From: Candidatus Bathyarchaeota archaeon
GTDB lineage: Archaea; Thermoproteota; Bathyarchaeia; Bathyarchaeales; Bathycorpusculaceae
Assembly (NCBI GenBank): GCA_963720565.1
Contig: CAVRFW010000005.1
Location: 64,001-128,000, forward strand
Direction of reading: 5' to 3'
DNA length: 64,000 nucleotides
A model generated the notes under the pieces. It saw nothing but the letters and a program-made list of their open reading frames with translations, made no database searches and had not been told where the DNA came from. The first letter of the stretch is position 1. Each line of letters starts with the position of its first letter. Of the stretch, positions 5,493 to 24,128 are shown one piece after another. The position numbers and the translations under genes are program-made.

Positions 5493-5660
5493 ACACCCTA
5501 ATTCCTTTATTGTAATAGCAACGTATACTGCTCTGAGGTTAGAGCACTGTGAGAGACGCAGAAGAAAAATATAGCATCTGGTAACAACCCGGAGAAAACT
5601 GAATTTTCTAAATAACAGAGTCAATTCTCGTGGTTGTTAACACGTTCTCTAACACTGTGG

Positions 5661-7301
5661 TTACATACCGCCGTAACCACCCCCTGGCATTCCGCCAGGA
5701 GGCATAGGCGGAGCTTTCATCTTGCCAGAGGCGATGACGTCATCAACCCTCAGTATCATTGTGGTGGCTTCAGTAGCGGATTTGATTGTCTGTTTCTTAA
5801 CAGCCAAGGGCTCGTAAACTTCGAGTTCTCTCATGTCTCTGATTTTGCCTTCTAAGACGTCAACGCCTGCCCATTTTTCGCCCTTCTCATGGCGGCTCCT
5901 AAGCTCTAACAGAAGATCTATGGGATCAAGACCTGCATTTTCACCCAACGTCAACGGCACAATTTCCATAGCCTCGCCGAAACTCCGAACAGCAAGTTGC
6001 TCCCTGCCCGGTAGAGTTTCAGCATAACCCCTAAGTGCTCTAGCCACTTCCATTTCTGGGGCTCCCCCTCCCGCAACAATTTTGGGCACTTGAACAACAT
6101 CGCGGACTACACATAACGCGTCATGAACCGATCGTTCAGCTTCTTCAAGGAAGCGCTTGTCTGCACCTCGTATTAGAATAGCAACAGACCGCGGGTTCTT
6201 GCATCCTTCAATGAAAGTCAACTTATCATCGCCGATCTTCCTTTCCTCAACAACCTCTGCAAAGCCCAGGTCACTTCTTGAGAGCCCTTCTAAATTGGTA
6301 ACGGCCTTTCCGCCGGTTGCCATAGCTAGTTTCTTCACATCCGACTCCTTAACTCGTTGCACCGCCAAGACCCCCTTCCTAGCTAAGAAGTGCTGAACCA
6401 TATCGTCTATGCCTTTCTGGCAGAAAACGACATTAGCGCCTGAGGAAATTATCTTTTCAACCATTGCTTTGAGCATACCCTCCTCTTCCCGCAAGAAAGA
6501 CGACATCTGTTCTGGACGTTCAATGTTGATTTTAGTATCGAACTCGGTCTTCTTAATTTCAAGTGCACTTTCCAACAATGCTATCTTTGCCTTCTCGACC
6601 CGTTTGGGCATGCCTGAATGCACAACCTCCTTGTCAAGAACCACCCCTTCGATGAGCTCGGTTTCAGACATGGATTCACCGGGCTTCTTCTCCACCATAA
6701 TATCGTCCAAGTCTACCGTGAAGTCTTCTCCAACTTTTCTGGCCACATGCAAAACGGCTTCAACAGCTATTTTGGCAAGTTGCTCCTTGCTCTCAGACAC
6801 CAGCTTACTAGCCATAGAGGTAGCAGCAACCTTCTTCAAGAACTCCTTTCCTGTGGGGTTAATTGGAATCGCAATGTTTTCAAGGGTTTCAAGAGCTTTG
6901 TCAGCTGCTTTACTGTATCCTTCAACGATTACTGTGGGATGGACACCCTTGTTTAACAAGTCTTCAGCCTTTCCTAAGAGTTCACCGGCCAAAATGACTG
7001 ACGTTGTGGTTCCATCTCCCACTTCCGCATCTTGGGTCTTGGCGACTTCAACCATCATCTTAGCAGCAGGATGTTCAATATCCATCTTGTCAAGTATTGT
7101 TCTTCCATCACTCGTAATTATTACGTCACCGGAACTATCCACCAACATCTTATCCATTCCTTTGGGGCCTAACGCGCTTTTGACCGCTTCTGCTATCGTT
7201 TTTGCCGCCATAATGTTATTTCGTTGGACATCTCTCCCCGTAGATCTTTCCGACCCCTCCCTCATAATTAGAACAGGTACACCACCTGTTTGCGTAGACA
7301 A
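5661..7301 (-). CDS. ths: Thermosome (group II chaperonin) subunit, second paralog
   Basis: LGPKGMDKML, GDGTTTS, GGM tail; TTG start at 7301 behind GGAGG RBS. Confidence 0.97.
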   Translation of the reverse strand: MSTQTGGVPVLIMREGSERSTGRDVQRNNIMAAKTIAEAVKSALGPKGMDKMLVDSSGDVIITSDGRTILDKMDIEHPAAKMMVEVAKTQDAEVGDGTTTSVILAGELLGKAEDLLNKGVHPTVIVEGYSKAADKALETLENIAIPINPTGKEFLKKVAATSMASKLVSESKEQLAKIAVEAVLHVARKVGEDFTVDLDDIMVEKKPGESMSETELIEGVVLDKEVVHSGMPKRVEKAKIALLESALEIKKTEFDTKINIERPEQMSSFLREEEGMLKAMVEKIISSGANVVFCQKGIDDMVQHFLARKGVLAVQRVKESDVKKLAMATGGKAVTNLEGLSRSDLGFAEVVEERKIGDDKLTFIEGCKNPRSVAILIRGADKRFLEEAERSVHDALCVVRDVVQVPKIVAGGGAPEMEVARALRGYAETLPGREQLAVRSFGEAMEIVPLTLGENAGLDPIDLLLELRSRHEKGEKWAGVDVLEGKIRDMRELEVYEPLAVKKQTIKSATEATTMILRVDDVIASGKMKAPPMPPGGMPGGGYGGM

Positions 7302-7470
7302 ACAACTTCTCCTCCACGTACAATTACTATGACTTGACACAGTAAAAGGTTTCCCAAATTGCCTTTTTCATGACGTGGAAACCTAAGGAATCGTAACAAT
7401 CCAGTGAGAAACAAAAATATTGCATGAAAAAGTGAGTGAGCAAAAAATGTCACTATACCCACTGTATCAA

Positions 7471-8778: not shown

Positions 8779-9015
8779 TTGACGAAAGAATGCAAATTTT
8801 GCGGATGCGAGTTAACTGAGGAAGAAATCGAAAAATACGGTTGTCTGTCAACCGAGGAAGAGGGCATAAAAATTGACACCCCTATATGCCCCGTTTGCGC
8901 TCTGACCAAAACCAAATTGGGCAAGGCAGTACCTGAAGAGGAACGCGAGAAATTCCTAGAAGAGTGGATACGCAGAAAGGTACCACATGAACCACGCGCT
9001 CCAGCCAGTGAGTAA
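8779..9015 (+). CDS. Hypothetical zinc-binding protein
   Basis: CKFC...CPVC. Confidence 0.55.
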   Translation: MTKECKFCGCELTEEEIEKYGCLSTEEEGIKIDTPICPVCALTKTKLGKAVPEEEREKFLEEWIRRKVPHEPRAPASE

Positions 9016-9034
9016 AATTTTTAAAGCGTGCGCG

Positions 9035-9240
9035 ACATAGATAGTCGATTATTTCTTCAACGAACAAGACATAGGTAACAGTTAATCGCAAGTTTGAAGG
9101 GGGACTTTGACAAATGGTTCACTGTTTATGCGGCAAAGACGCTAACGTGTTCGAGAGCGGCAAGACGGAATGTATTGATTGCTACTTGAAGCGGAAAAAA
9201 AGGCTGTAAACGCGGATAGCTGTCCCGAAATCAGTCGCTT
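9035..9240 (+). repeat. ~205-bp module homologous to 23928-24128
   Basis: Visually alignable throughout, e.g. gttaatcgcaagtttga, acgctaacgtgttcga, ctgtaaacgcg. Confidence 0.85.
9114..9209 (+). CDS. 31-aa zinc-finger micro-protein, paralog 1
   Basis: MVHCLCGKDANVFESGKTECIDCYLKRKKRL; conserved with paralogs at 12532 and 24004. Confidence 0.8.
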   Translation: MVHCLCGKDANVFESGKTECIDCYLKRKKRL

Positions 9241-9338
9241 GCGCGCGCGATTCTGTTCAGCTATTATGTTTTTGCGTTTTTCAATGGGACATAAGTGTTA
9301 AACGGCAAACTAACTTAATGCACATTGGAGGGAATAAT

Positions 9339-9791
9339 GTGTATGAAGAGTTCATTGATAAACTGAAAAAGCGAAAAGAAGAGCGTCAAGAAGACTACGA
9401 TCGACTCAAAGGTATGATAGCAGGATTTCGTTTAACCAATTTCAACCAAACAGAAGAGAGCTTAGTTTTAATTGTTGAGTACGCAATGAACAGTTTCAAA
9501 AATCATCAGGATTCTATTGACGCTCTCAAGGAAGCAACAATCTACTCATTTCAAAGACTTGAAACCTTAGAAAAAGAAATGAAACAGTTGAGAGCCACCT
9601 ATGGCATAAAAGGTGTCGCGCACGCTGAAGAGGCAGGAGGCAAAACGAATGAGGGTGCGGGACAATTGAACAGTGGAAAGAAGAATACAGGAGGGGCAAT
9701 CAAAATTAAGACCAAAACAAAAAACAAACCGAAAAACGAAACAAAAAGCAAAACAAAAAACAAAGGAAAAAAGACGTGGAAGCAGCAGTAA
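9339..9791 (+). CDS. Hypothetical coiled-coil protein with Lys-rich tail
   Basis: ORF with GGAGG RBS before GTG; helical N-part, KTKTKNKPK tail. Confidence 0.55.
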   Translation: MYEEFIDKLKKRKEERQEDYDRLKGMIAGFRLTNFNQTEESLVLIVEYAMNSFKNHQDSIDALKEATIYSFQRLETLEKEMKQLRATYGIKGVAHAEEAGGKTNEGAGQLNSGKKNTGGAIKIKTKTKNKPKNETKSKTKNKGKKTWKQQ

Positions 9792-9830
9792 GAAGAATTA
9801 AAGAAAAATGAGCATAAAGAATAATTTCCT

Positions 9831-9950
9831 ATGACAATATTCTCTGAAGACCTGATAGACCAAATCAAAGAACTGCTTGAAAGAGTGGCAGACCCACACA
9901 TAGTTAAAACAAGAGTTAAGTTCTATTCTTTCAAGGAGTTCCTTCAATAA
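9831..9950 (+). CDS. Putative 39-aa protein (MTIFSEDLIDQIKELLERVADPHIV...)
   Basis: ATG-TAA ORF with amphipathic helix; no family recognised. Confidence 0.3.
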   Translation: MTIFSEDLIDQIKELLERVADPHIVKTRVKFYSFKEFLQ

Positions 9951-9985
9951 CAAGTTTATGTTGCCGTCTGCTCTCTAATTGTAGA

Positions 9986-10396
9986 GTGGTGATAAATGTG
10001 AACGCAAAGCAATTCTTCAGAATCGAAGTCAGCACAAGTTGGGGACATTTGATTAGGGAAAGGAAGACGCTGACTAAAGACGAAGAGAAAGTAAGAGAAG
10101 CAAGAAAGGCTTATCGTGATGGAATCAAAAAAGCATGGGACATTTACACCGAAGACAACATGATAGTAAAGGAAGCAAAGAAGACTCTTGACTCAGCAAT
10201 AGACGAAGCATACAAATCCTGCTTGCCCGAACATGGAGAGAGAATGGCACAAACAGAATATGAACAGGCAACCAAACTTTATTTCAAAACTTTATACAAA
10301 GTTCACCGCAAGTTTGCGGATACGATCGGACCAATTTGGGGTGTTTTCATGAAAGACATGGAGACTTCTCCAAGACTAACCAAGAAAAATACTTAG
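9986..10396 (+). CDS. Hypothetical helical protein
   Basis: 136-aa ORF, protein-like composition; start uncertain. Confidence 0.55.
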   Translation: MVINVNAKQFFRIEVSTSWGHLIRERKTLTKDEEKVREARKAYRDGIKKAWDIYTEDNMIVKEAKKTLDSAIDEAYKSCLPEHGERMAQTEYEQATKLYFKTLYKVHRKFADTIGPIWGVFMKDMETSPRLTKKNT

Positions 10397-10651
10397 AAGC
10401 TAAACCAAAACCCTATTCATTCTCCACAGACTCATTGTGCAAGACCATGCGACTTTCAATGGGTATCCGAAAATATCACTCTAAACTATATAGTGGGGGA
10501 AAACCTTCCCCTCAAAATAATTTCGGGAAAAAAGGATTCGCGAATGACATCTCCACCTAGCTTGGAGTTCATATCCCAGCGCCCCTATTGATTGTCAGTT
10601 GCTTTCCGAGATGACAAGTCTAAAGTATGAAATTGCCCGATAGATGTTCTT

Positions 10652-11425
10652 ATGAAAGAAAGAACCAAAACATTACTGATTCTGGTTGTGCTTCTCATAT
10701 GCTCGTTTCTCCCTGTCTTTACGGCATCGCCTTTTCCCCAACAAGACAGCTCACTTGTCATCAAAGAAGTCCTAATGAAGACCTCAGTCGCATACCTGTG
10801 GCTCAGCCCGATCGTACATGTCATTACTGTGGTACTGTTTATCGTTCTTTACCTTTATGGATCCCGAGTAGGCAGAATTGCCGACGTCTTTTTCGCCATT
10901 CTGTTTTTGTTCATTGCCTTCAGCAATCATATCGCTGTCACTGACACTTATGGACTTGCGGTGGTAACAGGAAACCTGGTTCCAATACTAATCGTAGGGC
11001 TCCTCTGGATTTGGGAGGTTTACAGACCTCAGAACAATTATGCTTTCGAGAGGCTTCCAGCGTGGAGATACTGGGTCTTGCCCTTTGCCTTCTTGGCTTT
11101 CTGGTCTCCAATAAACGCACAGCTAAACCCTGATTTCAATCCGTTGTTGCTTCTAAACTCTTCCTTCGGTGTAATGTACTGTCCCACAACACCAGTCATA
11201 ATCGCCCTACTTACTCTACTCTACCCAAGAGTCAACACAATTGTCCTCAGAGCAACCAGTTTTGTGGGATTAATAATGGGTCTGTTCAATGTCATGTCGT
11301 ATTTCATAATGCCAGGATATACCCTGTGGAATCTGGTTCTTCACACGCCACTCATATTTATTTCCCTGTACGGCTTGCTGATCCCAACCTTAGCAAAGAC
11401 TAACCTCTCGCGGCACGCTCGATAA
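10652..11425 (+). CDS. Hypothetical membrane protein
   Basis: Signal-like N-terminus and ~7 TM segments. Confidence 0.75.
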   Translation: MKERTKTLLILVVLLICSFLPVFTASPFPQQDSSLVIKEVLMKTSVAYLWLSPIVHVITVVLFIVLYLYGSRVGRIADVFFAILFLFIAFSNHIAVTDTYGLAVVTGNLVPILIVGLLWIWEVYRPQNNYAFERLPAWRYWVLPFAFLAFWSPINAQLNPDFNPLLLLNSSFGVMYCPTTPVIIALLTLLYPRVNTIVLRATSFVGLIMGLFNVMSYFIMPGYTLWNLVLHTPLIFISLYGLLIPTLAKTNLSRHAR

Positions 11426-11437
11426 CAGAAAGGGCGG

Positions 11438-11913
11438 TCATTTGGGCAAATCATTAGACTGTGCGCTCGTCTTCTTCTTGTTGTATGAGTACTGATAGTA
11501 CCCGTAGGAACTCATCATGACAAAGAAAGCAATCACAAGCATGCTTCCGTAGAGTCGCGACGTCAGGTATCCGTACCAGTTTAGTCCTATGCTGCCAATG
11601 AAGAGAAGTAACAGGTAGATGATGAGACCTGGCGGCCAGCGTTTGGGGTGATGAAGGGGTTTCTTTCTAGTTATCAATCTGTACCAGAGGTCGTAGACCA
11701 AGTAGATGATTATTGGCAGTTCAGCTAGCAAGCGTCCAGAGTCGTTGCCAAAGAGTAAGTTCAATATCCAAAGCAAAGCAAAAGGAATCAGCTGGGCACT
11801 AAATGCGATTCTCAACTTGAGCTCAAACTTCGAGAGTTCACGAGCACGCAGAAGATACACAACAAACAAGAAGGCATAGAAGACCAGTGCGAAGAAAACT
11901 ACAAGGTTGTCTA
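11438..11913 (-). pseudogene. Membrane protein, 5'-truncated at a (CG)n run
   Basis: Hydrophobic frame (LDNLVVFFALVFYAFLFVVYLLR...) extends to the GCGCGCG run at 11914-11920 with no ATG before an upstream stop. Confidence 0.55.
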
Positions 11914-11989
11914 GCGCGCGGTCGTCATTGTGTGCAAGTTGGAGCTACGCCTATTAGTGAGTGTGTTAGTGTGTGTTGCGGTGATTGGA

Positions 11990-12406
11990 ATGAGGGCTGG
12001 TTTGCTCCTATGTAGATATGAGAATGCAGAGGATTATTCTGTTGGCAGGCGGTTTCGCTTTGCTGTTGTTGATTTGGACAAAGGTAAGAATTATCCATTG
12101 AATTTTGTTTGTATGTTGCCGACGAAAATAGAAGCTGCTGGTAAGTCGCAAAGTGTCTTTCTGCAGATATTTGGAGACAAGAGCGTGGAGCAGGCTAGGG
12201 TATTGTTGACTGGGGCTTTGGAGACCGAGAGTGATCCTGAGGTTAAAGCGGAGATTGAAAGAAGGTTGAAGCTGCTTGAAGTTAAACCAATCAGTTAAAT
12301 CGAATGTAGCGCTTGCAGAAAATTGTTTCAGCTTGGGCGAGTGAGAGGGTTTAAGCAGAAATTCTGTCAAGAGTGTGTGAAGGAAAAGTTCGGCAGTCGT
12401 GAATGA
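11990..12406 (+). pseudogene. Hypothetical protein with C-terminal zinc finger, interrupted by in-frame TAA at 12296-12298
   Basis: Same frame continues IECSACRKLF...KFCQECVKEKFGSRE*; GGTGA RBS. Confidence 0.7.
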
Positions 12407-12531
12407 GAAAACCCTCTAACGCGCCAGAAAGCACATAGTAAAATTGTGGCCAAACCCTTGAAGACTTGGCTTTCGACATATGACAACACACACAAGATGA
12501 TTTAAAATGAGGCATTCAAGAACGTCCTATT

Positions 12532-12627
12532 ATGAACGAGAAGTGTAGTTGTGGTTCTTTCCCGAATGTTTGGGAAAACGGAAAACGCGAATGTTCAGAT
12601 TGCTATTTGAAGCGAATTAAAGGGTAG
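12532..12627 (+). CDS. 31-aa zinc-finger micro-protein, paralog 2
   Basis: MNEKCSCGSFPNVWENGKRECSDCYLKRIKG. Confidence 0.75.
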   Translation: MNEKCSCGSFPNVWENGKRECSDCYLKRIKG

Positions 12628-12767
12628 AATCTGAAAAGGGTTGTTCGGGGATTCTGAACCGTTTCGAGTGTGTAAGAGAGTTTTGTAATCCGTGTTTTAG
12701 ATTGCGGTTTGTTTCGGCGTTGAAAAATCATTAATATCGGTTTTAGTCCAACCAGAGAGGCTTCGAG

Positions 12768-12875
12768 ATGGAATGGAGAGTTTTAAACGAAGAATTAGTT
12801 GACTTTCTATCGTGCAAAAGAAAAAGGCGACTCGAAGTCAGGAGCGTCAGGCTTTTGGAAAAGCTAAGGAAATAG
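12768..12875 (+). CDS. Putative 35-aa basic protein (MEWRVLNEELVDFLSCKRKRRLEVRSVRLLEKLRK)
   Basis: GAGG RBS, ATG-TAG; stop overlaps a GCGCGCG run. Confidence 0.4.
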   Translation: MEWRVLNEELVDFLSCKRKRRLEVRSVRLLEKLRK

Positions 12876-13120
12876 CGCGCGGTTACACGTTACCTAGAAA
12901 AACATCCTGTTGATGCGTCAGGTTTGATTCATGTCGGAATGATACGCCTTGAAGTTGAAGCATACAAACCATTCTCAAAAAGCACGCGTGAAGAAACTCG
13001 ATAAACCTAAAGAAACAACGTATAATCGCCAATTTTTGGATTTATGCCAGAAATGGGAAAAAAGGAGAAAAGGGCTGCGGAGAAAACATTATGCTGGCGA
13101 TATCACCCAAGAATGGTCGG

Positions 13121-13145
13121 TCCGTACTAGACTACAGGCCCCCAT
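13121..13145 (-). repeat. att-like direct repeat copy 2: orphan tRNA 5' fragment GGGCCTGTAGTCTAGTACGGA
   Basis: 22/25 identity to 1394-1418; no anticodon or T arm follows. Confidence 0.75.
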
Positions 13146-13266
13146 ACTTTGAGAAGAAATAACTTGTGCTAAAGGATTTAAGGCTTGTTTATTGCGCGCT
13201 TGATGAGGTTATCTGATTTGCCTTCAGTCATCAGAGGTAACTTGAAAGCATCTTTCTGGCAGCATG

Positions 13267-14424
13267 CTATGGAACATAGGCTGAGTTGTTCCAGAAAATG
13301 TATTTGCTGTAGGTGGCGTCTAATGCCAATCCATCATCATATATTATGTCGAGATTGTTCGGGTATTGATCCATCCAATAGTCTAAGCTCGTGCATATTT
13401 CAAGCGAAAACGCATCTGCTTCCCATAACCCCCAGATCCTATCAGTGGGTCCTCTGAGACCGTACCCGTAGTCTTTCGGAAGGACAAAAGCAACCCTATC
13501 ACTGCTTCTCATGCTTCGGTCAGGATTGGCTTCTATGTACCGCCAGAACCGCTTCAAAGCATCAAAGTGTTCCTGTTGGAGAGTGCCATCCGTGTAGTCT
13601 TCATTGCTGTCAAAGACCAAAACGTACTTCGCGCCGCTATCATACGCCATGACAAGGTTCTCGTAGAGATGCTCGCCCGACGAGAGGTATGGAGGTTCGG
13701 TGTATTTCCAAGTTATCATAACACCCCACTCCCTGTTTTGAATTGTGGCTGCTCCCCTGCAGGCAGCTACATTTAACCTTCTGCTATAGTTAAGCGCGAA
13801 TTCTGCGAAGACAACATCATAGCCTGCTCTATAATCGAACCAGTAAAGGGCATAATCAGATGTGAAAGCTTGAACGCCTTCAATCTCGGTCGCATTCGAA
13901 GTAGAGCTCTCCAGCATTTTTTCCAAGTGAGCAACGAACTGGATGCTCGCGTCCGTATAGTTGTCTGCTTCGCGGACGATTCTATATGTCCATAAGTCCA
14001 GGTTCTTCCCGCCGACCTCGTCAAAAACATACAAACCCAAAAAACGGTCGCCCCATTTCACTTTCGCGTTTTCTATCCATTGTCTCGAAGGCTGAGTGGG
14101 AGGATCATGATCATCTGTGAACACGATAAACGATAATCCTTTATCATAAACGTACTGACAAAGGTCAACGAGTTTTGTCTCATTAAAAGTTATGCCAGTG
14201 CTGCCTATAACGAACAGGTTCGTGTATGAACTGACCTCGTCAATCAAAGCCTTAATCTCGACGACGTCATCGTAAGCCGCATCGATTCCAACGTAAAAAT
14301 CTGTGGACCGGTTTGGTCTTGGCTTTTCAGAGGCTAAAAAGAAATTCGCCACGAGAAGAGAAACAATTAGCAAAGATGACAGAAGAAGCAGGAAGTATCT
14401 GGGTTTCATTTGCACCTTAAACAA
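13267..14424 (-). CDS. Secreted/membrane-anchored hypothetical protein
   Basis: N-terminal hydrophobic anchor, 385-aa globular domain with 'GLYVFDEVGG'. Confidence 0.75.
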   Translation of the reverse strand: MFKVQMKPRYFLLLLSSLLIVSLLVANFFLASEKPRPNRSTDFYVGIDAAYDDVVEIKALIDEVSSYTNLFVIGSTGITFNETKLVDLCQYVYDKGLSFIVFTDDHDPPTQPSRQWIENAKVKWGDRFLGLYVFDEVGGKNLDLWTYRIVREADNYTDASIQFVAHLEKMLESSTSNATEIEGVQAFTSDYALYWFDYRAGYDVVFAEFALNYSRRLNVAACRGAATIQNREWGVMITWKYTEPPYLSSGEHLYENLVMAYDSGAKYVLVFDSNEDYTDGTLQQEHFDALKRFWRYIEANPDRSMRSSDRVAFVLPKDYGYGLRGPTDRIWGLWEADAFSLEICTSLDYWMDQYPNNLDIIYDDGLALDATYSKYIFWNNSAYVP

Positions 14425-14527
14425 TAAGCAAGTCTAAAATAAGGATTTTCCACATTCCTCGTTTAATTCAAAGTACTATTAGTGCACTTTCGCCTTGGAG
14501 TGCCAGAGAAGTACTGAAGGTTTGTGG

Positions 14528-14704
14528 CTACTTGAGGTTTGTTCCGCAGTTGGGACATTTAAGGTAGTCTGTCTTAACTTCCTTAAGCAAATCAGCGCCA
14601 CAGTAAAAACATATGCAAACCTTGCATCTTGGACAGAAGTAGTTGGCGCTTTGGATGGTTTTGTTGCAGACTATGCAAGGTTTGCCCACACATTCATTCG
14701 ACAT
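14528..14704 (-). CDS. Small multi-Cys zinc-finger protein (58 aa)
   Basis: CIVC, CPRC, CFYC, CPNC. Confidence 0.7.
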   Translation of the reverse strand: MSNECVGKPCIVCNKTIQSANYFCPRCKVCICFYCGADLLKEVKTDYLKCPNCGTNLK

Positions 14705-14966
14705 TCTTGAATAGCTCGCTGATAGAAATGGCTTAACACAGCTAATAAGTCTTGAAGAGACAGCATACGCCACAGCGGCAGAAGCAGCGCGTCGCAACTA
14801 ACTACTTTCCTGAGAATTTTCGTCAAAAATAGGATACAGAGTTTCCGAATTTTTTAACTAAACTGCCTTTGCGCGGAAAAAATCCAATGAAGAGGAATAA
14901 TCCACAAACGTTAAATTCACAGCATTGGTAACTTTAACAAATTTCATTGCCAACAGAGCTGATACC

Positions 14967-16888
14967 ATGAAAGTAATCTCTAAAGAAGACTTCAAGGATT
15001 TTGTGAATGCGTTAATCAAAGATGATTCTAGGCACGTCATTGGGGTGAAAGCTCGGGGAAACAAATTCGCCTTCGGCACACTGGAGTCAGCGGATGAGCT
15101 TCGACTTGACTACGACGTTACGCTATTGCCTCCGAAGAAATACTTCTTTCCCCAACGTGAAACGCTTTTCACCTATGATCTTGCAGATGGTTTTTCAGCG
15201 AAAAACCCTGAAGACGCTAAACCCATGTTGATAATAGGTGTTCACCCTTATGACATTGTTGCCCTGCTTCACATGGATGAAATATTCAGGGATACAAAAT
15301 CTGATCCGTACTACTTCAAGAAAAGAGAGATCATCCATCATAATTGGTGTAAACATTCAGAAAATGTCCAAATGGAATTTCTCTTCCTTCATGGGCTGCA
15401 GCGTTATCGACTATGGTTATGACCTCATGCTTACTGATTTAGGCAATAGATACGGAATCAACGTTGGCTCTTCAAAAGGAGAAGCACTTCTACTGAAGTA
15501 CGCAAAAAACATCATGCCGGCGTTGGCACGTGATATCCAAATCGCAGGGCAGAAGAAACAAGAAGTATGGAAGATGGTCCAGCAGAAACTGGATTTTCCA
15601 GCTGAACTGATCCCAGAGTTGCTGGGAGCAAGCTACTCAAGAAGCGGATTCTGGGAGAGCCATTCCGAGAAATGCTTAGCTTGCGGATCTTGCGTGCTGG
15701 TTTGCCCAACGTGCTACTGCTTCGACGTGAAAGATAATCCAGATTTGACCTTGGAGCAGGGTGAAAGAATCAGGACTTGGGATGGTTGCCTGCTCGAAGA
15801 TTTCGCCAAAATAGCTTCAGGAGAAAATTTCCGTGCGACCAGACCAACCCGTTATCGCCACCGTTACTTCAAGAAGGGAAAATACCTGTTCGACAGGTTC
15901 GGCTTCGTCTCTTGCGTAGGATGCGGAAGATGCTCCTCGAACTGTCTTCCAGACATTGCAAACCCCGTTAACTTGTTCAACGACATGTACCATGAAAGCC
16001 AAAACAGCGGAATGCAAATGCCCTCTTCAGCCACCCAGCCAGACGTAAGCATCAGCACCGAAGGAAACATTGACTACGTACCCGAACTCGGAACCATAAT
16101 AAAGAAAGTGCCAATGACGGCCTACGAAACCTTGTTCGAGATTAGACTGGACGATGGTTCAGAGCTTGGACACAAACCAGGACAATTTGTTGAAGTTTCA
16201 GTCTTCGGCATTGGCGAAGCACCCATATCAATTTCATCGTCCCCAACAAAAAAGAAAACGTTTGAACTCTGTGTGCGGAAACTGGGAAACGTCACAACGA
16301 GAATGCATAATCTGAATGTTGGAGCCAAAGTTGGAATAAGAGGCCCGTTTGGCAACGGTTTCGACGTTGAATCCCTGAAAGGAAAAGACCTGCTATTCGT
16401 AGCAGGCGGTTTGGGGATAGCCCCACTAAGATCCCTGTTCAATTTTGTGTTAGACAGAAGAAAGGACTATGGACGTGTCACTCTTCTCTATGGCTGCAAA
16501 GAGCCAAAAGAAATGCTTTTCGGGGAAGAACTTGCCCTGCTCAGCTTCAAGAGATGATGTTGAATTCAAATCCACAGTAAACTGGTGCCCAGAAAACGAG
16601 TTGTGGTCAGGCAACATAGGCGTAATTACAACGCTCATTCCGCTAGTCGAATTTGACCCCGAAAAGACTACCGCGATACTGTGCGGTCCACCTGTAATGT
16701 ACAAATTCGTCATTGCAGAACTAAAGAACCGAAATGTGCCGGACGAGAACATCATCATGTCCCTCGAACGGAGAATGAAATGTGGTGTAGGCAAATGCGG
16801 GCACTGCCAAATCAACCAAATCTATGTCTGCAAGGATGGCCCCGTTTTCAACTATTCCAAGATTAAAGGCGTTCCGGAGGCGCTGTAA
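14967..16888 (+). CDS. NADP-coupled [NiFe]-hydrogenase/sulfhydrogenase beta (4Fe-4S) + gamma (FAD/NAD, 2Fe-2S) subunits, apparently fused; frameshifts ~15330 and ~16545
   Basis: CLACGSCVLVCPTC, CVGCGRCSSNC, RGPFGNGF, AGGLGIAPL, CGPP, MKCGVGKCGHC. Confidence 0.88.
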
Positions 16889-17625
16889 TGAAACCCAAAG
16901 TCGCATTCTTCGACTTCGCAGGCTGTGAGGGAGACCAACTTCAAGTAGCCAATCTAGAAGAAGAACTCCTGACTCTGCTGGGACAAGTTGAAGTCGTCAC
17001 CTTCAGAGAAGTCATGAAAGAGCACAACGACAACTATGAAATAGCTTTCATTGAAGGATCATGCACTCGACTGCAGGATGAAGATAGACTGAAACAGATC
17101 AGGAAGAACGCGAAAATCGTTGTCGCCATAGGCTCGTGTGCAGCTATTGGAGGCATTAATTCACTCAGAAACTACAAAGACCTAGAAGGCGTCAAGAAAA
17201 CCGTCTACGGAGAAAACGCAAAACTTTTCGATAGCTACGCAGCCAGACCGATAGACGCCATAATACCCGTAGACGCGTATGTTTATGGTTGCCCCATAGA
17301 CAGAGACGACTTTCTTCATGTAGTCAAATCGCTCTTGCTTGGAAAAAAACCTGAAACACCCACATACCCAGTCTGTGTTGAATGCAAGAAGAACGAAAAC
17401 ATATGCGCCTTTGAACGCGGCCAATTCTGTGTTGGACCAGTCACAAGGGCAGGCTGTAATTCCTGCTGCGTAAATGAAGGAACAATCTGTTGGGGCTGCC
17501 GAGGCTTTGTGGACAATCCAAACGAGAATGCCCACAAGGAAGTCTTGATAAAATACGGTCTCACAGTTGACGATGCAATAGGCAAGTTTAAGTTATACTT
17601 CGGTTGGCAGGAGGCAAAAAGATGA
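16888..17625 (+). CDS. [NiFe]-hydrogenase small (delta) subunit
   Basis: GCEGD, IEGS, GSCA, GCP, CVEC, CVGPVT, CWGCRG. Confidence 0.92.
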   Translation: MKPKVAFFDFAGCEGDQLQVANLEEELLTLLGQVEVVTFREVMKEHNDNYEIAFIEGSCTRLQDEDRLKQIRKNAKIVVAIGSCAAIGGINSLRNYKDLEGVKKTVYGENAKLFDSYAARPIDAIIPVDAYVYGCPIDRDDFLHVVKSLLLGKKPETPTYPVCVECKKNENICAFERGQFCVGPVTRAGCNSCCVNEGTICWGCRGFVDNPNENAHKEVLIKYGLTVDDAIGKFKLYFGWQEAKR

Positions 17626-18932
17626 AAAACCAAAATATCGAAGTTGCCGTGCACCATGTTACAAGGGTAGAAGGGCACGGAAACATCTACGTGAACATAC
17701 AGAAAGGCGTTGTTGAAAAGTGCGAGTGGAGTATTCCAGAAGCCCCGAGATTCTTTGAAGCAATGGTAGAAGGCAGATCTTGGAACGAGCTACACCATAT
17801 TACTTCACGCATCTGCGGGATATGCTCTATTGGACACTCACTAGCCTCCTTGAAAGCCACCGAAGCAGCTCTGGGCATAACGATTAGTGAACAGGACCTC
17901 AAACTCAGAAAGCTCGCGCTTCACGGCGAGAACTTGCAGAGCCACATTCTACATTTGGGTTTTCTGGTGCTACCGGACCTCATGGGAGTAGGATCCGTCA
18001 TTCCTTTAGCTTCCACAAATTTGCCCGAGGTAAAGACCGTTCTGCGCCTCCACAGACTTGCAAATGAAATGTCAAATCTGGTTTGCGGGAGAACAACCCA
18101 TCCTCAAAGGCTAATCCCTGGAGGATTCTCCAAAATTCCCACAATTAAAGAATTAACTGAGCTTAGAAAGAAGCTCCAAGACTCAATCCCAAGCCTCCAA
18201 GCAGTAGCCGAACTCTTCAAAAGTCTAATGGACAAATTCCCCAAATTCAAAAGAGAAACCGAGTTCATCGCGTTGACAGACCCAAACGAGTACGCACTCT
18301 ATGACGGGCTAATAGCTTCATCAGATACAGGTACAGCTCCCGCGCGAGAATACTTGGCCTTCGCCAATGAATATGTGGTTCCAAGATCAACGGCTAAATG
18401 GGCTAAACACGTGCGCGAATCCTACATGGTTGGCGCTTTGGCTAGACTAAACATCAACTACAAGAGACTTTCACCGATGGCTCGCGAAACATCCGACAAG
18501 TTCAATCTACTGCCAATGTGCCATAATCCATTCATGAACAATATCGCCCAACTTGTTGAAGTAGTTCACGGCTTCGAAGACTCTATTCGCCTGATCAATG
18601 AACTTGAAGCAACAGGTTTGCAGAGTCAACCAGAGTACCACAAACCAGAAATCAAAGTAAAAGCAGGTCAAGGAGTCGGAGCAGTAGAGGTACCCAGAGG
18701 GATACTATTCCACGACTACACCTACAACGCCAAGGGAGTATGTACGAAAGCAAACTGCATAATCCCAACAAACCAAAATCACGCCAACATAGAATTAGAC
18801 ATGAAGGCGCTCCTACCACAGATCATTGAAAAATCACAGAAAGAGATTGAATTAACACTAGAAATGCTTGTGAGAGCATATGATCCCTGTATATCATGCT
18901 CAACTCACGCGGTCAAAGTAAACTTCACCTGA
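17622..18932 (+). CDS. [NiFe]-hydrogenase large (alpha) subunit, group 3b-like
   Basis: RVEGH, L1 RICGIC, EVPRG, L2 DPCISCSTH plus 7-aa cleavable tail. Confidence 0.95.
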   Translation: MKNQNIEVAVHHVTRVEGHGNIYVNIQKGVVEKCEWSIPEAPRFFEAMVEGRSWNELHHITSRICGICSIGHSLASLKATEAALGITISEQDLKLRKLALHGENLQSHILHLGFLVLPDLMGVGSVIPLASTNLPEVKTVLRLHRLANEMSNLVCGRTTHPQRLIPGGFSKIPTIKELTELRKKLQDSIPSLQAVAELFKSLMDKFPKFKRETEFIALTDPNEYALYDGLIASSDTGTAPAREYLAFANEYVVPRSTAKWAKHVRESYMVGALARLNINYKRLSPMARETSDKFNLLPMCHNPFMNNIAQLVEVVHGFEDSIRLINELEATGLQSQPEYHKPEIKVKAGQGVGAVEVPRGILFHDYTYNAKGVCTKANCIIPTNQNHANIELDMKALLPQIIEKSQKEIELTLEMLVRAYDPCISCSTHAVKVNFT

Positions 18933-19052
18933 GCCCAAGTTTCAAAACTCCTTTTCCAGAAAAGTTATCAGACTAAAACATACAATATAGTATCAGCTCC
19001 AATAAAGCTGGCATCTTCAGTACAAAAATCCAGATTTGAGAGGAAAACAGTA

Positions 19053-21725
19053 TTGGGTGTAGAGAACCTCAAACTCTTCTTCAATCCTAAGGCCATTGCG
19101 GTCATAGGAGCAAGCGACCGCGAAGATTCCATAGGAGGAAAAATACTTCGCAACCTGGCCGGACATTATAACGGCATAGTTTTTCCAGTGAACCCCTTCA
19201 GAAGAACTGTAAATGGAGTCACAGCCTTTTCCACCGTTGAAAGACTACCTTCTAAAGCTGACTTGGCAATTATTGCGACTCCGGCCCATACAATCCCTCA
19301 AATAGTTGAAGAATGCGGTAAAGCAGCAATAACAAACATAATTATTGTTTCCGCAGGCTTTGAGAAGAACGTTGCAGAAGTAAAAGATCTTAATCAACGA
19401 ATTTTGGAACTGAAACGGACTTACAATCTCCGAATCATGGGGCCCAACAGTTTTGGAGTAATGAGACCCAAAGCCAATTTGTATGCAACTTTCGGAGACA
19501 AAAAGGCAATACCAGGAAAGATCGCATTCATATCTCAAAGCGCCGCACTCTGTGGATTAGTACTTGACTGGTCTCATGAGACTCATGTCGGCCTGAGTGC
19601 AGTGGTCTCCACAGGCACGTCAATGGACGTTAACATCAGTGACTTAGTTGACTATTTCGGAGAAGACCCTCAAACCAGAGCCATTATGCTCTATTTTGAA
19701 GACTTAAAGAACATACGATCTTTCATGAGTGCAGCAAGAGGATTTGCCAGAACCAAACCAATAGTTCTTGTCAAAGCTAGTCGCTTCACAAGAGAAAGAG
19801 AAAGTTCAGAAGTTAGCACTAATGACTTCACTGATGAAGATGAGATTTTCGATGCCGCATTTCGCCGCGTCGGGGTTGTCCGCGTAGATACAATCACTGA
19901 ACTTCTAGCCTGCGGAAGAACCCTATCGATGCAACCAAACCCCAGTGAAAACTGCTTGACGATAGTTACCAACGCAAGCGGGCCAGGAACAATGGCTGTC
20001 GACGAACTCAGGGCTAGAGGCGGTGAACTCTGGAAACCCAGCGGAAACACGATAGATTTACTGAAAAACATTTTGCCTTACTACTGCAACATCTCGAACC
20101 CTGTCGATGTTTTGGAAGAGGCAGCTCCTGAAAGATTCAGAAGAGTGTTACAGGTTTGCATAGATGATCCCGCGGTAACAAGCCTACTGCTAATCTACAC
20201 ATCTCTCGGCACCACCGAACCTCACAGCATAGCGAACATTGTTATGGAGACAACTGCAAAGAAAGGAAAGACTTTTCTAGCTGTTATAATGGGAGAGGAC
20301 AAAAACTGCCAAGAAGCAAGAAGACTACTGAACTGCAACGGTATTCCTGCATTTGAGACCCCGGAAGAAGCCGTTTCCACATTCATGCACATGTACACGT
20401 ACACGAAAAATCTGCAGTTGCTATATCAAACTCCTGAAGAACTCGAGCTAACCTCAGACGTACCAGCACACCTTAGGGGAATCATACGACGTGCTTTCCG
20501 TGAAGGAAGAAAGTCACTCAACCTGCCTGAAGCGCTAGGTTTCCTAGATGCATACAGAATACCAACTGTGAAATCAATGGTCGCCCGGAACGCAGAGGAG
20601 GCAAAAAACAAGGCTGCTGAAATTGGTTTCCCCGTAAAAATCCAAGCTTTATGTTCAACACCACTCTCTAAACCCATTCAAGAGAACTTCTGCTGCGACG
20701 CAGATTCCCTGTCTGAGGTTGAAACTTCGTATAACAAGATTGCGGAAAAAACGGAAAAGTCTGCCTTAGCAGAGTTTCAGGGAACACTAATTCAGCCAAA
20801 ACCCAGAACAGAGGGGCGCAGCTTGTTTGCTGGGTCAAGAAAAACCCCCAAATTCGGCTCCATTATCCTCTTCGGAAGCAGCAGAGCTGGAAAGACACAT
20901 AAAAGACCTGTCAGCATAGGCTTTCCGCCTCTAAATCAGGTTCTCGCCAAACAGATTGTTGAAAACTCGGATTTCACACAATACGTACGCGCTCACCCGA
21001 ATAATCACAACAAAATAAAAGGCGCTATTGAAGAAACACTGGTGAAACTATCTCAGCTTGTAATAGACTTCCCTGAAATAAGAGAGATCGATGTAGATCC
21101 ATTGATTCTTGAAGACAACTGTGTGTATGCAGCAGATGCTTACATCACTATTGACGGAGATAGACTAATGCGTGAAGCATCTGACCATCATGAGCATCTA
21201 GTCATCTCGCCGTACCCCAAAAAATACGTTGCAGTTCGAACCTTGAAAAACGGGCTACAAGTTAGATTACGACCTATAAAGCCTGAAGACGAGAACCGCT
21301 TCAATACACTTTTCAAGTCTTTGTCTGAGGAAAGCGTCAGACTCCGATTCTTTGAAACCATAAAAGAGCTATCTCACGACACCCTGACTCGATACTGCAA
21401 TTTGGATTACGATCGGGAAATAGCCATAGTAGCTGAATTTCAAGATGACAAGAGAATCATCGGTGTGGTAAGAATAATACCTGACCTTGCGGGAAAAACT
21501 GGCGAATTTGCTATTATGGTTGGAGATGAGTGGCAAGGATTAGGGTTAGGTTCAAAACTCATGGACATAATCTCCGAGGTTGCACAGGATTTGAAGCTGA
21601 TGAAAATTCACAGTTACGTCAGTCGAGCTAACACCAAGATGATCAGGATGTGCACAAAAAAAGGATTTGAGACCGAGCCAATAGACGAATACGTGATAAG
21701 CATGTCGAAAAAGCTATCACCCTAA
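19053..21725 (+). CDS. Acetate-CoA ligase-like/GNAT fusion (Pat/YfiQ-type protein lysine acetyltransferase)
   Basis: IAVIGAS, GPNSFG, SQSA, NPVD, ATP-grasp remnant, C-terminal GNAT 'WQGLGLGSKL'. Confidence 0.88.
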   Translation: MGVENLKLFFNPKAIAVIGASDREDSIGGKILRNLAGHYNGIVFPVNPFRRTVNGVTAFSTVERLPSKADLAIIATPAHTIPQIVEECGKAAITNIIIVSAGFEKNVAEVKDLNQRILELKRTYNLRIMGPNSFGVMRPKANLYATFGDKKAIPGKIAFISQSAALCGLVLDWSHETHVGLSAVVSTGTSMDVNISDLVDYFGEDPQTRAIMLYFEDLKNIRSFMSAARGFARTKPIVLVKASRFTRERESSEVSTNDFTDEDEIFDAAFRRVGVVRVDTITELLACGRTLSMQPNPSENCLTIVTNASGPGTMAVDELRARGGELWKPSGNTIDLLKNILPYYCNISNPVDVLEEAAPERFRRVLQVCIDDPAVTSLLLIYTSLGTTEPHSIANIVMETTAKKGKTFLAVIMGEDKNCQEARRLLNCNGIPAFETPEEAVSTFMHMYTYTKNLQLLYQTPEELELTSDVPAHLRGIIRRAFREGRKSLNLPEALGFLDAYRIPTVKSMVARNAEEAKNKAAEIGFPVKIQALCSTPLSKPIQENFCCDADSLSEVETSYNKIAEKTEKSALAEFQGTLIQPKPRTEGRSLFAGSRKTPKFGSIILFGSSRAGKTHKRPVSIGFPPLNQVLAKQIVENSDFTQYVRAHPNNHNKIKGAIEETLVKLSQLVIDFPEIREIDVDPLILEDNCVYAADAYITIDGDRLMREASDHHEHLVISPYPKKYVAVRTLKNGLQVRLRPIKPEDENRFNTLFKSLSEESVRLRFFETIKELSHDTLTRYCNLDYDREIAIVAEFQDDKRIIGVVRIIPDLAGKTGEFAIMVGDEWQGLGLGSKLMDIISEVAQDLKLMKIHSYVSRANTKMIRMCTKKGFETEPIDEYVISMSKKLSP

Positions 21726-21746
21726 CCTCGTTCCATACGATTGAAC

Positions 21747-22079
21747 CTAAAGATCTAAATCGTTAAGGAATTTCCAGAAATCTTCCACAAATCTGACTAT
21801 CCGAACTTCCAAACAATTTGAACCTGCATACAGATCCTCGTCAGTTTCGCACTTGAAAAATCCGACGGTGTGAGGAAACCCTTCCTGAAACTCGGGGTTT
21901 TCGACCACTTCAAACAGGCAAACAAGTTTGTCCGCAATCTTTCTTTTGCGATCTGAAAAGAAGACCGAGTAGTTTGGGTATTTTTTTCCCCTATTTCCCA
22001 AGTTGGGAAACGTAATTATCCATTCTAACTCTTGAAAACAAAATTTTTTTTCCAACTTTTCAGTAACCTCTGCACCCAA
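21747..22079 (-). CDS. Hypothetical protein
   Basis: 110-aa ORF. Confidence 0.6.
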   Translation of the reverse strand: MGAEVTEKLEKKFCFQELEWIITFPNLGNRGKKYPNYSVFFSDRKRKIADKLVCLFEVVENPEFQEGFPHTVGFFKCETDEDLYAGSNCLEVRIVRFVEDFWKFLNDLDL

Positions 22080-22136
22080 TCGCTGCCAAACTATTGTGAC
22101 GCAAGTTCAAAATAAGATTTGTTGAAAGATGCTTCC

Positions 22137-22625
22137 CTATGACGCTCGCGTTAACGTCACGTGAAACGTGGCTTGTCCGCCAGGCGGAAAAATGAAGAAC
22201 ACAGTGTAGCTTTGAGGTGTCGATCCGCCGAACCCCCTTGTAAAGGGAGTGCTACCTCTTATCTCAGCATCCGCACTCTCTATTTCTTTCAAGATTGGGT
22301 ACAGGTCCTCGGACATGCACTTATTATCAATTCCTTTGTCCCAGTAACCCCTGTAAATGTATACTTCAGTCCAACCGTTGTCTCCGCCAGGCATTTTGGT
22401 GCAGCTTATCGTCAACAAACAATTCTCGTTTGCGCCAGTAGCTACGGGCACATAACAGACTGACACTGTCGCGTTTAGAAACCTGAGGCAGTCATTTGTT
22501 CCGCTAATAATAAAATCGAGTTCTCTCGGGGTGGCCTGAGGCGAAGCCAACGAGAACATAACAAGAAAAACAGCTAAAGCGCAAACAACCACAGAAATAA
22601 TAACTCGAACCCAGAAACCTCTCAT
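22137..22625 (-). CDS. Secreted hypothetical protein
   Basis: Signal peptide/TM then beta-rich domain. Confidence 0.65.
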   Translation of the reverse strand: MRGFWVRVIISVVVCALAVFLVMFSLASPQATPRELDFIISGTNDCLRFLNATVSVCYVPVATGANENCLLTISCTKMPGGDNGWTEVYIYRGYWDKGIDNKCMSEDLYPILKEIESADAEIRGSTPFTRGFGGSTPQSYTVFFIFPPGGQATFHVTLTRAS

Positions 22626-22856
22626 TCTAATGCCACTCCTTCAACCATCTCTATTAAATGCCACATTGTTTGCAGCTGAAGCAAACTTCTCGTTCAACGT
22701 TCCTACAATCCAATTGTTCTTAAATCTTTAGGCTAAGGACACCGAATCCGCCATTAAATCTGAGAAACGAACTTGCGTGTTCCAGACGCGGAACAATTTG
22801 TTCCTTGAGTAGAACTAAATTCAGCATTAACCCTTAGGATATGCGGTGAGCTCTGC

Positions 22857-23897
22857 ATGGGAAAATGGCTTGAAAAATATGCTGATTCAATCAGATTTTG
22901 GATTTTAGTTGTTGTTGTAACCTATTTTGCATACGCCGTCTATTATGCGGCGAGTGGCATGCGTGACAGCTTTGGCATGCTTTCCAATCAGTTCATTTAC
23001 ACTTCGCTGTCAAGTAACCCTTGGTGGTGGATGATTCTCTTCTACGGCAGCGAAGGCCTTTCAGGTTCGATATCAATAATCAGTCGCGCAGTCGCTGGAG
23101 CCTTCGCCGCTTATGCAGCCTTTCTGTTTTGGAGGAAAAAAGACAGGGCAATACCGCAGGTAAAAAGGATTGCATGCAACGCATTGATATTCGAAGCCCT
23201 GTTCTTTCTCGCCCTGATTCCTTCAATTATAGCCGCTGCTGCCTACAACCTGTCAAGCGAAAATCTATTCTATTTCGGCCATACTCCCGGAATACTGCTC
23301 ATCTACGGCACATTAGTCCCAATTCTCGCAATCGTCATAACCGTTCCGCCACTCCTGCTTAAGTTGCGCTCAACAATCAAACACGAGGCATCTGGCCAAG
23401 GAATCATTAAATGGTCAAGCTTGACGGCAGTCGCCTATCTCCTCTTCGTCTTCTGGTTCAATTATACGATGCTGTGGGCAGGTGTCACAGTTCCCTACGC
23501 ACAAGTCTACGAGCAGTGGGGACTGGATTTCGTGCTTCAACCTGCTAACATGGTGAGCTTCTGTCTCACTATCATCGGTCTGCTGGCTTTAACCCTTTCA
23601 GCACTGAAAACAGCGATGCCTACAATCAAAAAACGAACACTAACGCCAAACCTAACCCGTATTGGCACAATTATGACATTGTTTGGAGGCTACTTCGTAT
23701 TCAACGTGTTCTACTACTACCTCACGGGCGGTTACGCTGCACACCCGAGTGTATGGTATGAAGTTATAGGACCGCTGCATAACCCCAACTTATGGGCAAT
23801 AGCTCTAGTCTTCCTTGGGTTACCGCTGATAGCCTATGACAGAAATAAAAGAAGCCTAGAAATGGACAATAAAACTGGGTTGACCCAGACTGCGTAG
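22857..23897 (+). CDS. Hypothetical multi-pass membrane protein
   Basis: ~8 TM segments; GGTGA RBS. Confidence 0.75.
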   Translation: MGKWLEKYADSIRFWILVVVVTYFAYAVYYAASGMRDSFGMLSNQFIYTSLSSNPWWWMILFYGSEGLSGSISIISRAVAGAFAAYAAFLFWRKKDRAIPQVKRIACNALIFEALFFLALIPSIIAAAAYNLSSENLFYFGHTPGILLIYGTLVPILAIVITVPPLLLKLRSTIKHEASGQGIIKWSSLTAVAYLLFVFWFNYTMLWAGVTVPYAQVYEQWGLDFVLQPANMVSFCLTIIGLLALTLSALKTAMPTIKKRTLTPNLTRIGTIMTLFGGYFVFNVFYYYLTGGYAAHPSVWYEVIGPLHNPNLWAIALVFLGLPLIAYDRNKRSLEMDNKTGLTQTA

Positions 23898-23927
23898 TCA
23901 AAAGGTCAAACTTAAAAGGAGTACCCT

Positions 23928-24128
23928 ACATACATAGCTGATGCTTCTTCGAAGAACAAGAGGCCAAAAACGGTTAATCGCAAGTTTGAGGGGACTCTGA
24001 AAATTGGCTCAATGTTCATGCGGCAAAAACGCTAACGTGTTCGAACGCGGCAAAACAGAATGCATCGACTGCTACCTACAACGAAAAAGAAAACTGTAAA
24101 CGCGTATAGCCTTCAAAATAGGTCGCCT
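23928..24128 (+). repeat. Second copy of the ~200-bp micro-zinc-finger module
   Basis: Homologous to 9035-9240. Confidence 0.85.
24004..24099 (+). CDS. 31-aa zinc-finger micro-protein, paralog 3
   Basis: TTG start; MAQCSCGKNANVFERGKTECIDCYLQRKRKL. Confidence 0.8.
   Translation: MAQCSCGKNANVFERGKTECIDCYLQRKRKL

Follow-up and report, generated by a model that had tools for sequence, protein, structure and literature searches.

Stand-alone archaeal micro-proteins of the C(P)XCG type, exemplified by Brz of Halobacterium salinarum (PMC2253796) and by HVO_0758 and HVO_2753 of Haloferax volcanii (PMC10716476, PMC11241148), are shorter than 70 amino acids (aa), contain four cysteines, are often left unannotated and have been proposed to be regulatory; HVO_0758 has been described as joining a zinc core to a positively charged helix. 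Archaeal tailed viruses also encode small proteins with Cys motifs, the CxxC proteins, whose function is unknown; they occur in the HF1-group and Hardycor1 haloviruses (PMC7230728, PMC7911831) and, as Zn-finger genes, in Fuxivirus (PMC10848311). These papers propose regulation or virus–host interaction as their role, and in Hardycor1 a CxxC gene lies immediately before terL (PMC7911831). Here we describe a family of cysteine micro-proteins that resembles both groups and is represented by three 31-aa open reading frames (ORFs) in a 64,000-nucleotide stretch of a Bathyarchaeia genome (contig CAVRFW010000005.1, positions 64,001 to 128,000; hereafter the window). A first-pass annotation had noticed these three ORFs; new beyond it are five copies in the genome, a promoter-leader cassette common to copies 1 and 3, and the occurrence of the family in tailed viruses of Bathyarchaeia.

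Unlike Brz, HVO_0758 and HVO_2753, to which they have no sequence match, the new proteins combine a C-x-C-G first knuckle with a C-x-x-C-Y second one and lack any CPxCG-like pattern, measure only 29–37 aa, carry their helix at the C-terminus, and are carried on a cassette present in several copies in Bathyarchaeia, with one clade found in viruses. They also fall outside the CPxCG definition of Tarasov 2008: in all 25 cores compared below, a single residue lies within the first Cys pair, and the second pair is followed by Tyr, with no Pro after the first of its two Cys. The haloviral CxxC proteins likewise give no sequence match, and, unlike them, most known copies of the family are chromosomal and have promoter-like signals of their own.

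A coding family with five copies in one genome

A six-frame search of the host genome of the window (2.09 Mb in 13 contigs) found five family members in total, three in the window and two on contig C2. The first-pass annotation had spoken of a three-member family; its three window copies are real, with positions, 31-aa length and translations all confirmed, and only the genome total had to be raised. Copy 1 (9114..9209, + strand, subfamily A, ATG start) has a 97% identical counterpart in another genome, G002. Copy 2 (12532..12627, +, subfamily C, ATG start) has orthologues in the metagenome loci L089–L126, and copy 3 (24004..24099, +, subfamily B, TTG start) has a coding sequence identical to that of the fourth copy at C2:54362-54457 (+), also of subfamily B. 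The fifth copy lies at C2:64850-64945 (−). The window therefore represents one copy each of subfamilies A, C and B, each a four-cysteine ORF of 31 codons plus stop. With copy 1 as the only query against the whole genome, the other copies were recovered at E-values from 4e-13 to 1.7e-7 (copy 3, 5.9e-13; copy 2, 1.7e-7), and the loose pattern CxCG-x12-CxxC occurred six times in the genome, compared with 0–1 times in each of six shuffles. Because of these E-values and counts, chance similarity can be set aside for the window ORFs.

To characterize coding status, 25 distinct 24-codon cores from genomes were used for residue conservation, stops and pairwise comparison of non-synonymous (pN) with synonymous (pS) differences, and metagenome loci were added, for which 177 candidate stretches yielded 83 confirmed and 80 retained ones. 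Over 32 disjoint close pairs, metagenome loci included, 88 synonymous and 61 non-synonymous differences gave a pN/pS of 0.18, a value biased downward in pN since members were gathered by protein similarity, whereas the shifted frames of the same pairs gave 1.34 and 1.01. Among the 25 cores, pN was below pS in 293 of 300 pairs, invariant residues were encoded by varying codons, and none contained an in-frame stop, while each of the other frames had stops in 9–25 of the 25. The start-codon count is free of the sampling bias: after five cut or broken loci had been excluded from a set of 109 and duplicates removed, 82 of 83 distinct loci had an in-frame ATG, GTG or TTG 2–7 codons ahead of the first Cys, compared with 11 and 26 of 83 in the other frames. 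All four cysteines lie in a single frame in 105 of the 109 loci, and two of the four remaining loci are cut by contig ends. Defective copies do occur (L043 is truncated, L110 frameshifted, and L069 has no standard start). The synonymous excess from which selection on the peptide had been proposed is real, as seen between copies 1 and 3, whose 24-codon cores are separated by 10 synonymous and 4 non-synonymous differences, and the pN/pS and start-codon results extend it across the family, which is protein-coding and under purifying selection.

Among the copies, a weak hint of transcription, and that in a relative, was obtained for copy 3 only. A 151-nt contig of RNA library X1, at a depth of 2.8, covers 23965-24108, from the leader to the stop, with eight differences, one of which turns the start into ATG; it comes from a single study, as contigs only and without strand. 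The RNA libraries held no contig covering copy 1 or copy 2, which proves nothing.

The distribution of the family is narrow and patchy, within one family of Bathyarchaeia. Of 332 genomes from the host family, 18 carry intact copies, 27 altogether; these carriers belong to three genera, the largest of which accounts for 13 (of its 120 genomes), and one further genome has a truncated copy. The cross-genome search suggested in the first-pass annotation thus recovered relatives within the host family and none in the wider sample, neither in other families among 401 genomes of the class nor in 160 other genomes of the phylum, all of these sets being samples of incomplete genomes. All eight named records that carry relatives are Bathyarchaeota or Bathyarchaeia. 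A twentieth genome match, in G596, comprised 14 residues within a 568-aa frame and was dropped as spurious, as were five weak class-level matches outside the host family (E 0.002–0.006) that had no full motif. An unrooted tree (75 nt, 54 sequences) separates several host subfamilies, some with support of 84–100.

Motif, predicted fold and database relatives

The motif of the family is C-x-C-G-x12-C-x2-C-Y-L with a basic tail. Cys4, Cys6, Gly7, Val12, Cys20, Cys23, Tyr24 and Leu25 (copy 1 numbering) are invariant in all 25 cores, position 13 is Phe or Trp, and Glu14 is present in 23. Of 37 distinct tails, 36 have at least three Lys or Arg residues after the last Cys, and the remaining one is truncated at the end of its contig; the net charge is +2 to +4. 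Of the 82 loci that have a start, 80 encode 31–37 aa and the other two 24 aa (at a contig end) and 29 aa, which agrees with the size and single-domain part of the CPxCG definition (<100 aa, no other domain); one called protein of 102 aa, P0010, has the finger at its end. The four invariant cysteines make zinc binding likely, but no more than that.

AlphaFold2 with a 30-row alignment gave a model with a pLDDT of 90 and a pTM of 0.51, consisting of an N-terminal knuckle with Cys4 and Cys6, strands at 12–14 and 17–19 (hairpin 12–19), and a helix at 21–30 with Cys20 and Cys23 at its start. The treble clef is defined as a knuckle, a loop, a β-hairpin and an α-helix, the knuckle and the helix N-terminus each contributing two ligands (PMC4999995). 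Since the order of elements and the placement of ligands match this definition, we regard the protein as a predicted minimal treble-clef finger. In the model it shares knuckle, loop, hairpin and helix with the treble-clef group as represented in that source (GATA, nuclear receptor, LIM, B-box, RING, uS14 and the N-terminal finger of TtuA), but differs in that the finger is the whole protein and has a CxC knuckle instead of CPXCG. Consistently, fold searches listed mostly treble clefs (LIM, uS14, nuclear-receptor and GATA DNA-binding domains, B-box, RING, TtuA and A20). All of these matches were weak, with a best Foldseek E-value of 1.6 and none at E <= 0.001, and in the VIA fold search the best row (Z 3.8, root-mean-square deviation 1.2, 31 aligned residues) was among rows tied across families. 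As the matches are weak and tied across unrelated families, no specific treble-clef family can be named. A search of BFVD found no match at E <= 0.001, the best (E 0.58) being uncharacterised small phage proteins, and a homodimer prediction with two Zn scored 0.09 against a mark of 0.42, which is uninformative on binding either way.

Profile databases placed the family outside described ones, in agreement with the first-pass reader, who had not recognised it. For 30 members, no Pfam family scored over its cut-off (best E 0.023, each family matched by one member), NCBIfam and PADLOC gave no match at E <= 0.1, and among PHROGs only phrog_23822, of unknown function, was matched, weakly, by 16 of the 30 (best E 0.002). 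A profile search of 1.84 billion representative proteins returned 15, all short and all with the family motif, and the ten that were looked up are unnamed or called 'hypothetical protein'. The view that the copies fall below gene-caller cutoffs needs correction accordingly: relatives of 31–35 aa are already in a public protein collection under such labels. The best ESM Atlas score, 0.87, was to unnamed clusters and serves as a lead only. A sequence match in the PDB to ribosomal bL36m (E 0.008) covers 15 residues in the CxxC-YL half only and was judged to be motif convergence. In the literature, the accessible text of two papers on viruses and proviruses of Bathyarchaeia (PMC10848311, PMC11705971) does not mention such a family, although their supplementary gene tables may list members as hypothetical, and searches for Bathyarchaeia small proteins, zinc fingers and microproteins, which left most subscription journals outside, found nothing on it. 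Large catalogues of small ORFs, such as that of PMC11364881, probably hold these sequences unnamed.

Viral members and host cassettes

Host-weighted alignments found nothing in the first two viral scans, and it was a viral-type alignment together with a DNA pattern that revealed viral members. Intact ones are present on three IMG/VR contigs (L136, L137, L138) and on one genome contig (L010). In L136 and L138 the stop of the family ORF overlaps the start of a Myb-like helix-turn-helix (HTH) gene, which is followed by the gene for the large terminase subunit; a single gene intervenes in L010, whose terminase matches Terminase_6N (E 3.9e-12), and in L010 and L138 the start of the family ORF overlaps the stop of a winged-helix gene. 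Three of the four intact cases (L010, L136 and L138) are thus start/stop-coupled to neighbours within a terminase operon. In the fourth, L137, a contig of 28.7 kb, the ORF lies among head and tail genes, and a truncated copy in the G001 provirus (capsid, tail tube and terminase by Pfam) has a position like that in L137. Location among head-tail hallmark genes holds for this clade, with the truncated G001 copy, only. The four intact viral members form a single clade (UFBoot 95), whose placement in the unrooted tree described above has support of only 54–68 and does not indicate a direction of transfer.

The terminases of L136 and L138 are 82% and 70% identical to a remnant on contig C9 of the host genome, and the Myb-like gene occurs in 113 of the 332 family genomes, often in several copies, with up to 11 scored in one; the viruses therefore belong to the host's own group. 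The spread of the Myb-like gene suggests either a temperate virus group with a very wide distribution or a module that has been retained. No further copy of the micro-protein gene was found in 86 other viral loci or in 30 host loci of the Myb-like gene, these being partial sequences, and this scarcity among related viruses argues against an essential viral role. A search of 50,697 phage records with tblastn gave no family match, and a simple repeat-spacer scan of the genome found no CRISPR array and hence no spacer link to viruses.

The genome holds other proviral debris, namely an orphan pair of Myb-like HTH and terminase genes at C9:19380-21244 and a separate head-tail connector remnant at C5:8689-10395. 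In genome G001, contig C17 (L045:1800-20000 and L046:1-10300) carries an apparently complete provirus of ~28 kb, in which a TFIIB-repeat gene and an ABC-ATPase/GNAT gene directly follow the terminase.

Host copies have a different setting, and many of them behave as promoter-plus-ORF cassettes with changing neighbours. Copies 1 and 3 and the copy at C2:54362 share a block that runs from a TATA-like box through a leader of ~85 nt, a Shine-Dalgarno-like tract and the ORF to 30–110 nt past the stop. For copy 1, the putative TATA box at 9020..9026 (+), aligned in 12 A/B leaders, marks the left edge of the block shared between cassettes. A purine-rich Shine-Dalgarno-like tract lies at 9096..9103 (+), and a T-rich tract past the gene at 9269..9281 (+), kept in subfamily A, is a possible archaeal terminator. 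The corresponding candidate signals of copy 3 are a TATA-like box at 23912..23918 (+), again aligned in A/B leaders, and a Shine-Dalgarno-like tract at 23988..23993 (+). Copy 2 has no A/B leader; a TATA-like box at 12501..12507 (+), 24 nt ahead of its ATG, may produce a leaderless transcript. The DNA match between G002 and copy 1 starts at 9015, in the TATA region, and the flanking genes are rearranged. The two B copies of the genome have 100% identical ORFs and 73% identical leaders, while each ORF is 91–97% identical to its positional orthologues, a pattern of homogenisation by gene conversion that may also be an assembly artefact.

Neighbours of the copies vary, with 39 upstream families at 60 loci and 36 downstream families at 70 loci, counts derived from mechanical ORF calls that include spurious frames. 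The downstream ORF is co-oriented in 48 of the 70 loci and convergent in 22, copy 3 included. A scan of 88 neighbours revealed no function in common, and 6 of 271 neighbour clusters match any of 89 viral loci, so that the neighbours of host copies are mostly non-viral. Some copies adjoin signs of mobile elements. In L125 and L126 these are an archaeal phage integrase together with the 3' end of a tRNA, in L090 the remains of a viral ATPase, in L026 a tRNA-Ser accompanied by att-like repeats, and in L033 an IS110 transposase. Genes for tRNA are present in 5 of 51 loci. Att-like tRNA-arm motifs lie near copies in 7 of 109 loci, with nine motif matches against ~4 expected; as the loci are redundant, no clear overall enrichment was accepted. 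Inspection by eye of the A/B block alignments revealed no transposase, terminal inverted repeat or target-site duplication, and no clean empty site was found in which to look for duplications, the G001 and G003 sites being too diverged to align. A structured RNA or riboswitch in the leader was rejected for lack of any predicted consensus pair in 12 leaders and of any Rfam match in five loci. A regulon motif was also rejected: a 7-mer shared by the upstream regions of several subfamilies has 224 occurrences in the genome, and several copies do not preserve its palindrome. A bacterial promoter scan, of a type unsuited to archaea, gave nothing.

Several unnamed genes accompany the copies. Directly before the promoter of copy 1, an unannotated-looking 78-aa ORF with two CxxC pairs (8779-9015, +) has a 39% identical relative at C2:24294-24148. 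In 11 loci subfamily A is followed by a coiled-coil-like gene, located behind copy 1 at 9318-9857 and matched there by three short contigs of library X1. The 136-aa gene after it (9986-10396) is duplicated at G000:C13:46874-47284 with 95.6% identity, and this duplicate also bears a piece resembling the end of the coiled-coil-like gene. Just upstream of copy 2, 11930-12406 (+) holds a gene of an unnamed Bathyarchaeia family in which an in-frame TAA at 12296-12298 cuts off a CxxC...CxxC tail that is continuous in the paralogue at C9:426166-425747; it has no Pfam, PHROG or Atlas match, and it accompanies subfamily C in 11 loci and another member once. Elsewhere, 11 loci of subfamilies D and E have a conserved micro-ORF of 53–59 aa before the finger (~120–400 nt upstream of it in L004 and L023), a Cys-rich micro-ORF of 53–64 aa precedes a further subfamily in five loci, and a 47-aa CxxC ORF follows the finger in L037, L038 and L040. 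The variable region of copies 1 and 2 adjoins two convergent thermosome (group II chaperonin) genes and then an Hsp20 gene (3837-7340), the former named from recognisable sequence and the latter by Pfam on an orthologue. At 14925-16888 lies a hydrogenase-like operon whose first genes are split over frames (14925-15422, 15238-16557, 16469-16888), possibly by frameshifts or assembly errors.

Possible roles of the micro-protein

We tentatively favor a reading in which the protein is an accessory zinc finger that passes between hosts and proviruses and binds nucleic acid through its basic helix. The function put forward by the first-pass annotation, nucleic-acid-binding or regulatory, would still be the likeliest one, judging from the treble-clef model and the basic tail. 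Under this reading the family would be a set of stand-alone treble-clef micro-proteins (29–37 aa) in a mobile accessory pool of archaea and tailed proviruses. Cys4 and Cys6 of the CxC knuckle and Cys20 and Cys23 at the start of the helix would hold one Zn2+, Val12, Phe/Trp13, Tyr24 and Leu25 would form a small core, and the Lys/Arg-rich C-terminal helix would touch DNA or RNA. The peptide would thus be a small trans-acting regulator or co-regulator: viral copies would probably affect the expression of late or packaging genes, and host copies would be made from their own promoter. The promoter-plus-ORF block of ~250–300 nt, in which no transposase or terminal repeat was seen, would spread by recombination, with gene conversion homogenising the copies.

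Several observations weigh against this reading. The conserved Glu14 and a net charge of only +2 to +4 fit DNA binding poorly, and a common fold reveals no function, many of the weak fold matches being to protein-binding modules. Of 14 C(P)XCG proteins purified from Haloferax, 5 contained no zinc, and AlphaFold2 did not distinguish them from the others (PMC11241148). The window copies lie outside any provirus, and the proteins of six viral loci match the genome at C9:19380-21241 and C5:8689-10308 but nowhere in the window. The scarcity of the gene next to the Myb-like gene, the bias in pN, the mechanical neighbour counts and the single RNA contig as the sole evidence of transcription belong to the same side.

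The main rival, a credible but less than probable one, keeps the fold and the mobility and makes the peptide a protein-binding adaptor or inhibitor in virus–host conflict, acting in counter-defence, superinfection exclusion or interference with packaging or late genes, with host copies as captured decoys or immunity factors. The invariant Val12, Tyr24 and Leu25, the aromatic residue 13 and the conserved Glu14 could make an interface, the protein-binding B-box, LIM, RING, A20 and ClpG N-domain are among the fold matches, a patchy multi-copy spread with a viral clade is typical of conflict genes, and debris of the virus group is common in hosts, as the Myb-like gene indicates. No conserved partner gene lies alongside, however, none of the 30 members scanned had a PADLOC match, selection is strongly purifying with no visible rapid change, and the conserved basic tail is more simply explained by contact with nucleic acid. 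For an A20-like role in binding ubiquitin, a search for the E2 family gave no match in the genome, nor did its control give one anywhere. An unlikely elaboration is that Bathyarchaeia repeatedly domesticated a proviral late/packaging micro-protein by placing it behind a host promoter, followed by amplification and gene conversion, as a decoy or dominant-negative regulator that restrains virus induction or packaging.

The ORF might instead act in cis, as a metal- or redox-sensing leader peptide or as a portable promoter that controls the next gene. The predominance of co-oriented downstream ORFs, the conserved co-oriented gene 108 nt after copy 1 and the start/stop coupling of viral copies to the next gene agree with this, but nearly a third of the loci face a convergent gene, the 36 downstream families have no function in common, the leader has neither consensus structure nor Rfam match, and what is kept is the pattern of a folded domain and not a run of sensing codons; we consider such a role quite improbable. 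Still less probable is a small metallothionein-like metal buffer or a binder of a metal other than zinc. Four cysteines in 31 aa, several copies per genome and the other metals found in some Haloferax C(P)XCG proteins (PMC11241148) would suit it, yet there are just four ligands, their spacing is fixed, hydrophobic and basic residues are conserved as well, the 88 scanned neighbours include no recurrent metal-homeostasis genes, and the location in a viral packaging operon would go unexplained. That the copies now have no function in the host, being viral remnants in decay or a non-coding repeat, as the many broken proviral pieces in hosts and the three defective loci might suggest, is very hard to reconcile with the pN/pS of close pairs, the near-universal retention of four cysteines in one frame and the kept start codons and TATA/SD-like signals.

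With this family, validated but unnamed, the archaeal micro-proteome gains a new and narrow group of a known kind of protein, unusual in its CxC knuckle, its minimal size and its virus–host cassette life style. The predicted finger is among the smallest stand-alone treble clefs and short enough for chemical synthesis and nuclear magnetic resonance. Its dual life, as a coupled gene of a viral packaging operon and as an autonomous host cassette, provides a case for the origin and spread of archaeal zinc-finger micro-proteins. The same case bears on whether hosts convert proviral micro-genes to regulators or defences; if the domestication scenario were true, the peptide would be a 31-residue virus-derived immunity factor in archaea.

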